A stretch of 64,000 nt of DNA from Escherichia coli (GTDB taxonomy: Bacteria > Pseudomonadota > Gammaproteobacteria > Enterobacterales > Enterobacteriaceae), in NCBI RefSeq assembly GCF_046105845.1, contig NZ_CP151004.1. One strand, given 5' to 3'. Under the pieces are notes generated by a model. The model did not search any database and was not told the DNA's origin. It saw only the letters and a list, made by a program, of their open reading frames with translations. Shown here in pieces: positions 2,726 through 2,762 of this stretch; within the stretch, counting starts at the first letter, position 1, and each line of letters begins with the position of its first letter. The position numbers and the translations under genes were made by a program.

Positions 2726-2762
2726 CCCTCACCCTAACCCTCTCCCTAAGGGAGAGGGAACC
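2726..2762. repeat. GC-rich palindromic intergenic repeat (boxC-like), copy 1
   Basis: ccctcaccctaaccctctccctaagggagagggaacc; perfect inverted repeat ccctctccc/gggagaggg at 2738-2758; near-identical copy at 26621-26660. Confidence 0.5.

Follow-up and report, generated by a model that had tools for sequence, protein, structure and literature searches.

Two BoxC repeats behind the pepA and nrdD stop codons of an Escherichia coli strain and their possible part at mRNA 3′ ends

One intergenic repeat of Escherichia coli carries three names: BoxC (Bergler 1992), PIT, for potential intrastrand triplex (Hoyne & Maher 2000), and TMECO (Holder 2015, PMC4666352), with further accounts of BoxC/PIT in Bachellier 1999 and Hoyne & Maher 2002. 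BoxC also appears among the known E. coli families in an independent survey (PMC2267715), which gives its unit as ~50-56 bp. The published TMECO/BoxC consensus is CCCTCNCCC-N3-6-GGGNGAGGG-N3-GGGNGAGGG (Holder 2015, PMC4666352), that is, a pyrimidine block followed by two purine blocks. With respect to H-DNA, intrastrand triplexes and G-quadruplexes, the G-rich strand of BoxC conforms to the purine-motif triad rules and to the (G3N3)4 pattern, and a triplex has been shown in vitro for the family.

The REP/BIME repeats resemble BoxC in the stability of their hairpins, and other strains and genera have them in the stop-proximal slot that BoxC fills at the two loci described here; unlike BoxC, they have an unrelated sequence and no third block. 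REP is a known barrier to 3′ exonucleases and forms the 3′ end of Rho-terminated mRNAs. RAYT transposases mobilise the REPs, of which a genome has hundreds; for BoxC, no such enzyme is known. Protective 3′ stem-loops (Dar & Sorek 2018, PMC6061677) lie directly downstream of a gene and have no U tract, as is the case for BoxC, and form a functional class rather than a sequence family; perfect-stem BoxC copies of K-12 have an RNA end a few nt past the stem. Intrinsic terminators share with BoxC the GC-rich hairpin after a stop codon, whereas BoxC lacks the U tract, scores low at a homologue, is read through and was negative in assays (see below).

Here we analysed a window of 64,000 nt of E. coli DNA (contig NZ_CP151004.1 of assembly GCF_046105845.1), in which an initial annotation had pointed to a pair of repeats after the pepA and nrdD stop codons. 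The two copies agree with BoxC/PIT/TMECO in consensus, block order, intergenic location and unit length (~56-60 bp), and the element itself is not different. K-12 has no copy at these loci, and the window copies are strain-variable members of the family. The element is known at textbook level, and two copies alone add little.

Anatomy of the two copies

Both copies were located where the initial annotation had placed them, as near-identical three-block repeats on the + strand in the same orientation (Table 1). Copy 1 reads ACCCTCACCC-TAA-CCCTCTCCC-TAA-GGGAGAGGG-AACC (2725-2762), with a core at 2726-2758 starting 12 nt past the pepA stop codon. Copy 2 reads ACCCTCACCC-TAA-CCCTCTCCC-TCAA-GGGAGAGGG-TACC (26622-26660), with a core at 26623-26656 starting 8 nt past the nrdD stop codon; the coordinates and spacings given before (13 bp and 7 bp) were accurate to within 1-2 nt. 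The only differences between the copies are one loop indel and one flank base. Each contains the perfect 9-bp inverted repeat for which a stable hairpin had been proposed, and the isolated hairpins fold with −16.8 (copy 1) and −19.3 kcal/mol (copy 2, whose stem reaches 10 bp if the flanking A-U pair is counted).

A 23-mer search of the window with up to 3 mismatches generated two matches against 0.00 expected from 100 shuffles, which excludes chance as the source of the pair. The published BoxC/TMECO consensus likewise gave two exact matches in the window, on the − strand, against 0.00 expected. As both copies match this consensus exactly, the boxC resemblance suggested at first was a correct family call, and the element is an already known one. 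Both copies are intergenic, the first in the pepA-holC spacer and the second in the nrdD-nrdG spacer.

On the G-rich (−) strand, the order in both copies is CCCTCTCCC, loop, GGGAGAGGG, TTA, GGGTGAGGG. The leading CCCTCACCC of both copies, which had been taken for flank, is complementary to the third block, GGGTGAGGG, of that strand and belongs to a triplex-capable design. Purine-motif triads (G.G:C, A.A:T, T.A:T) are allowed at 9/9 positions of the G-rich strand in both copies, and the stem is perfectly Watson-Crick paired; a perfect stem with 9/9 triads makes them 'type A' copies in Holder's scheme. Both sites are therefore BoxC/PIT/TMECO elements of the 'type A' perfect-stem form, with TTA as the second loop. 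On the mRNA strand of the window copies, the alternative pyrimidine motif gives 8/9 triads and would need acidic pH; purine-motif triplexes are reported not to form in RNA.

Copy 2 has the same core as K-12 TMECO no. 2 (hrpB-mrcB). Alignment of the two window copies with eleven K-12 copies revealed semi-conserved flanks on both sides: the core is preceded by GCGCWCGGAYCGGTC and followed by GAAAAC(C)GCGCAC. To the right of the window cores, AACCGATCGAGCGC and TACCGTTCCGTGCC agree with the family flank (reverse complement of GCGCWCGGAYCGGTC); to the left, the flank of copy 1 agrees with GAAAACCGCAC, and that of copy 2 is shortened by the nrdD stop codon. Because the flanks are conserved on both sides, the real unit is ~60 bp long, roughly 2714-2775 and 26615-26672, rather than the 37-40 bp assigned at first.

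About 40 nt downstream of copy 1, GGGTGAGG occurs in inverted orientation (2799-2806). A second BoxC, inverted relative to copy 1 as in the type A + type B pairs of K-12, may have left this sequence behind. Rfam 15 searched at the gathering threshold over the whole window gave seven matches, none at either copy, and contains no BoxC model. The matches elsewhere were to Ysr276 (1760-1954, −, antisense inside pepA), the Mg riboswitch (19605-19720, −), naRNA4 (36077-36153, −), ES036 and STnc450 (45641-45820, +), ES239 (50392-50514, −) and the rpsF leader (63708-63792, −).

Table 1. Features around the two BoxC copies (window coordinates) and mapped RNA 3′ ends at BoxC copies of K-12 (K-12 coordinates)
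Feature	Position	Strand	Remark
pepA ORF, 503 aa	1202..2713	+	stop TAA 2711-2713
Copy 1 left flank GTTTGCGTTTTA	2714..2725	+	reverse complement of semi-conserved GAAAAC(C)GCAC flank
Copy 1 CCCTCACCC, complement of third block GGGTGAGGG	2726..2734	+	
Copy 1 hairpin CCCTCTCCC, TAA loop, GGGAGAGGG	2738..2758	+	9 bp, −16.8 kcal/mol
Copy 1 right flank AACCGATCGAGCGCAAT	2759..2775	+	BoxC unit flank
holC, 147 aa form	2847..3290	+	next gene downstream of copy 1
nrdD ORF, 712 aa	24476..26614	+	stop TAA 26612-26614
Copy 2 short left flank TCCTTCCA	26615..26622	+	between nrdD stop and core
Copy 2 CCCTCACCC, complement of third block	26623..26631	+	
Copy 2 hairpin CCCTCTCCC, TCAA loop, GGGAGAGGG	26635..26656	+	core = K-12 TMECO no. 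2
Copy 2 right flank TACCGTTCCGTGCCCC	26657..26672	+	BoxC unit flank
Remainder of nrdD-nrdG spacer	26673..26794	+	homologous to Salmonella spacer backbone
nrdG, 154 aa	26795..27259	+	downstream of nrdD and copy 2
K-12 primary lldD end, same orientation as here, element 11 nt past stop	3781065	+	4 nt past stem
K-12 end at hrpB-mrcB, core identical to copy 2	164636	+	5 nt past stem
K-12 end on ppiC side, G-rich orientation	3959467	−	4 nt past stem
K-12 end at degenerate BoxC copy	847200	−	4 nt past stem
K-12 end at degenerate BoxC copy	4231270	−	4 nt past stem
K-12 end at imperfect-stem copy	624567	−	12 nt past stem
K-12 end at imperfect-stem copy	632098	+	11 nt past stem

Placement, allele history and spread

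On re-reading of Table S2 of Holder 2015, the 18 MG1655 BoxC sites comprised 7 convergent, 9 tandem and only 2 divergent ones, and 16 of them were next to the 3′ end of a gene. Nine of the sites, re-checked against the RefSeq annotation, lie 11-28 nt past a stop codon (hrpB, argF, tauD, adk, lldD, pstA, ilvC, yihS and phnP). Between genes of the same direction, including those flanking the two window copies, the element is nearer to the upstream stop than to the next start in 10 of 11 cases (binomial p = 0.006), and a test of its position in tandem spacers against uniform placement gave p = 0.023. The stop-proximal position is a real tendency of the family in E. coli, as the bias to 3′ intergenic regions assumed in the initial annotation required. 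An equal bias is predicted by tolerance of insertions away from promoters, or by purifying selection acting on insertions within promoters. The element is C-rich in the mRNA in 8 of the 11 cases, an orientation bias relative to the upstream gene that is not significant (p = 0.23). In the text of Holder 2015 (PMC4666352), BoxC is linked neither to what the nearby genes do nor to how far away they are; this text reads contrary to the 3′ bias in its own Table S2.

Outside the enterics, the genomic context was derived with a crude GC-frame ORF caller, which put 41 copies 'inside genes' and left the gene starts uncertain. The 60 usable non-enteric copies, from at least 135, comprised 17 convergent, 35 tandem and 8 divergent cases, which is near background, with median distances of 82 nt (gene 3′ ends) and 199 nt (gene 5′ ends) and an orientation split of 20 versus 15. 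The 3′ tendency in these copies is weak, in the same direction as in E. coli, and not decisive.

The 501 bases around copy 1 had a match, annotated as pepA and holC, in 5,425 of 5,426 complete E. coli genomes. At pepA-holC, the BoxC allele was present in 1,404 of the 5,426 genomes (26%) and a K-12-type REP allele in 4,019 (74%), which together account for 5,423; at nrdD-nrdG, the corresponding figures were 408 (7.5%) and 4,609 (85%). None of the 23 BoxC copies of K-12 MG1655 is located at pepA-holC or nrdD-nrdG. The K-12 spacers at these loci hold REP/BIME sequences that begin directly after the stop codon, and both window spacers are wholly different from them; the REP consensus palindrome (GCCGGATG...CATCCGGC type) is present in the K-12, Salmonella and Enterobacter spacers and absent from those of the window. 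In three outgroup enterobacteria, with HolC 85-90% identical, the pepA-holC spacer also contains a pair of REPs, each time of the type proper to the species, and Salmonella and Enterobacter hormaechei carry REPs after nrdD. Because K-12, most E. coli and other enterobacteria have REP in this slot, we take REP occupation as the older condition, from which the BoxC alleles are derived.

At nrdD-nrdG, BoxC sits exactly at the position of the first REP in Salmonella and K-12. The remaining backbone of the window spacer and the BoxC allele had equal counts of 408 E. coli genomes, and the BoxC core was unchanged across three sub-variant spacers with backbones 93-100% identical to that of the window. 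The Salmonella nrdD-nrdG spacer contains ATCCCAGGGAGCTTACATAAGTAAGTGACCTGGGT, and the window allele lacks this central part. ATCCCAGGGAGCTTACATAAGTAAGTGACCTGGGT resembles an ERIC/IRU core.

At two other BoxC loci, ~35-50% of E. coli genomes lack the K-12 BoxC allele. The allele with a BoxC pair at hrpB-mrcB was present in 3,536 genomes, and the alternative that was fetched is an empty spacer 102 bp shorter; the K-12 allele at lldD-trmL was present in 2,716 genomes, the others having deletions down to an empty spacer of 47 bp. A rule by which REP always swaps with BoxC was rejected, the alternatives at these two loci being empty or deletion remnants. The empty alleles (BH100 at hrpB-mrcB, Nissle 1917 at lldD-trmL) diverge from the filled ones at the stop codon itself (TGA versus TAA and TAA versus TAG, respectively), indicating that the variable cassette extends to the ORF boundary. 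Empty alleles also indicate that a hairpin in the slot is dispensable and that any benefit from it is modest. In several of the E. coli genomes listed, including AS19 (and a class at 76% coverage), the BoxC pair of lldD-trmL is split by a 35-bp palindrome, CTGTCTCTTGATCAG-ATCTC-CTGATCAAGAGACAG, which we take to resemble the inside end of IS50/Tn5; it may be the footprint of an insertion sequence.

According to Holder 2015 (PMC4666352), E. coli strains have 1-30 BoxC copies, those of B2 having ~1, and Enterobacter has 129-143. The 64 kb window contains two, and near-identical cores occur elsewhere in E. coli genomes; both window copies are probably among the 63 loci that Holder catalogued in 56 strains. 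A consensus scan with one genome per species detected at least 120 loci; the matches listed were all in non-enteric MAGs, including Polaromonas, Archangium, Verrucomicrobia, Hyphomicrobiales and Contendobacter. The three-block core thus recurs across phyla among the matches listed, reproducing the report by Holder 2015. The flanks differ between seven MAGs; among the matches listed, only the unclassified GL140 MAG keeps ~30 conserved nt per side, and the others keep a few bases. In that genome, GL140_5_metabat_74, the BoxC-like core lies inside a longer repeat with ~30 conserved nt on each side and at least 27 copies, and seems to belong to a larger element specific to that lineage. BoxC is rarely carried on mobile elements: it was found in 248 of 72,556 plasmid records, among which megaplasmids and mislabelled chromosomes were frequent, and was nearly absent from phages (5 of 50,697 records).

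This variability raises the possibility, which we regard as a strong rival though less likely than not, that the copies are neutral or selfish passengers without a role at these genes that spread or are exchanged between strains, survive only where harmless (just after stop codons and away from promoters), and affect the RNA end only incidentally. Such a reading agrees with the allele-dependent presence at both window loci, with the common empty or deleted alleles and the wide range of copy numbers described above, with the lack of a functional class among neighbouring genes (Holder 2015, PMC4666352), and with the intergenic classes of the 60 non-enteric copies, which are no different from background. 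It is at odds with the repeated filling of the slot, for which the two window loci use either REP or BoxC and other genera use REP, and with the measurable molecular consequence of the hairpin in vivo at K-12 copies (see below). The unchanged nrdD core in the three sub-variants also points away from it, with substitutions too few to decide. The passenger reading overlaps with a role at the RNA end, is not strictly exclusive of it, and is compatible with an incidental hairpin effect.

The same variability can be read at the level of DNA. Holder 2015 proposed that the G-rich strand, when single-stranded, folds into an intrastrand triplex or G-quadruplex that stalls replication or repair and creates a rearrangement hotspot. 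The 9/9 purine-motif triads in both copies, together with the (G3N3)4 motif, are consistent with this, as are the formation of the triplex in vitro, seen by CD, NMR and melting at 70-82 °C (PMC4666352), the greater variability of TMECO loci between strains relative to control loci, the two window spacers wholly unlike those of K-12, and the recurrence of the three-block core across phyla with flanks that differ between seven MAGs (matches listed). However, DMS footprinting in vivo gave no protection of the triplex guanines (PMC4666352), and Hoyne & Maher reportedly saw no effect on replication in vivo. Moreover, the nrdD allele looks old and stable, its core being intact in backbones diverged by up to 7%, and any repeat that moves or recombines would just as well be expected to have variable spacers.

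Replication orientation was assigned from the positions of the K-12 origin and terminus. On this basis, the single copies in Table 1 of Holder 2015 comprise 8 on the lagging-strand and 5 on the leading-strand template, which is not a significant bias; both window copies would lie on the lagging-strand template if their gene order matches that of K-12. Overall, we consider a DNA-level role at these two loci quite unlikely. As published footprinting found no stable triplex in vivo, we treat the triplex as a property of the family rather than as the working mechanism here.

The hairpins and mRNA 3′ ends

The initial annotation had proposed 3′-end stabilisation or termination for the repeats. The sequences directly after the stems are AACCGAUCG and UACCGUUCC, with tails AACCGATCG and TACCGTTCC; neither stem is followed by a U tract or T run, and a scan of the window found no terminator-like site at either locus. 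Moreover, nrdD and nrdG presumably form one operon, in which case nrdG depends on read-through from nrdD. According to Holder 2015 (PMC4666352), which cites Hoyne & Maher 2002, BoxC showed no promoter or terminator activity and did not block RNA polymerase. In K-12 grown in minimal medium, ilvC mRNA reads through the BoxC that lies 13 nt past its stop codon and ends at the next hairpin, a downstream terminator.

K-12 RNA 3′ ends were taken from the curated Term-seq list of Adams 2021 (PMC7815308, Supplementary file 1); its legend gives 40 nt upstream of each end, the strings are 61 nt long, and the register was fixed from genome coordinates. Dominant ends mapped a short distance past the stems of several K-12 BoxC copies (Table 1), against 0.06 such ends expected by chance. 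They occurred at 4 of the 23 canonical K-12 copies in the curated list. For pepA and nrdD, where K-12 has REPs, the curated K-12 list contains no primary 3′ end. Term-seq locates the end of an RNA and says nothing of a longer mRNA life. At lldD, the BoxC end has an intrinsic-terminator score of 1.32 (threshold 3.0) and falls in a region of Rho termination that peaks within trmL.

These ends, mapping just past homologous hairpins, together with a strong GC hairpin right after each stop codon, could suggest that RNA polymerase stops at the stems and that the pepA and nrdD transcripts terminate there. The lack of a U tract, the low score at lldD, the passage of ilvC mRNA through its BoxC, the negative assays as cited and the presumed operon all contradict this, and we regard termination at the stems as highly improbable and largely refuted. 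Of the two roles first proposed, termination thus failed, whereas stabilisation gained indirect support from the K-12 ends at homologous hairpins.

A role of the element in loading Rho was also considered. The 20 nt that follow the nrdD stop codon include 11 C and no G, and the 24 nt that follow the pepA stop codon include 8 C and 3 G. This C-rich, G-poor stretch of 20-24 nt between stop and stem might recruit Rho once ribosomes leave and lower the transcription of holC or nrdG; its composition, the C-rich orientation of 8 of the 11 stop-proximal copies and the location of the lldD BoxC inside a Rho termination region are in line with such loading. The tracts are, however, far shorter than a typical rut site as generally understood, the C/G ratios downstream of the stems are ordinary (0.86 and 1.46), and rut-like composition was rejected on these two grounds. 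The orientation bias is not significant, 3′ ends are found in both orientations, and terminator activity was absent from the published assays as cited. Recruitment of Rho by BoxC is, in our judgement, very unlikely.

A stable stem-loop without a U tract lies directly downstream of the gene at both copies, the arrangement described by Dar & Sorek 2018 (PMC6061677), in which Rho-dependent mRNAs are trimmed by PNPase and RNase II back to such stem-loops, 24% of them REPs. The K-12 REPs in the same two slots fold with −14.3 to −21.3 kcal/mol, and the BoxC hairpins are comparable. On the demonstrated ground of family identity, anatomy, allele history, the lack of a terminator signature and the 3′ ends at homologous K-12 copies, the best explanation is that the derived BoxC alleles probably act as an exonuclease barrier at the 3′ ends of pepA and nrdD mRNA and not as terminators.

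In this mechanism, the pepA and nrdD transcripts would carry BoxC in the C-rich orientation, as a G-poor tract followed by a G/C-rich hairpin of 9-10 bp. Without a U tract, the hairpin would not terminate RNA polymerase, and the transcripts would end further downstream, by Rho or by processing. Exonucleases working in the 3′-to-5′ direction would then be halted at the hairpin, and the RNA would be trimmed to a stable end ~4-5 nt past the stem. If the Term-seq ends of K-12 are a guide, this end would lie at ~2762-2763 for copy 1 and ~26660-26661 for copy 2, and the upstream pepA or nrdD message would be protected, as by REP hairpins. We infer that the window copies behave like their K-12 homologues and that the ends arise by trimming.

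Meaning for the BoxC family

A wider reading takes BoxC as the functional equivalent of REP, a cassette that defines 3′ ends, with the slot kept filled by selection, REP and BoxC interchangeable in it, and the third block serving the element's own propagation or recognition on single-stranded DNA. We think this unlikely as a whole. The third block is not needed for an RNA end, yet it recurs across phyla. If true, this would be the first demonstrated role of BoxC after 30 years, and the allele splits of 26%/74% at pepA-holC and 7.5%/85% at nrdD-nrdG would provide a ready natural experiment.

The literature describes BoxC as without detected function, having neither promoter or terminator activity nor a link to a class of genes, yet Term-seq ends lie 4-5 nt past its perfect-stem hairpins. 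The present analysis adds the connection of BoxC hairpins to mapped RNA 3′ ends and natural pairs of REP and BoxC alleles in identical slots. With such ends and with natural REP, BoxC and empty alleles at hand, the question of BoxC function becomes cheaply testable.
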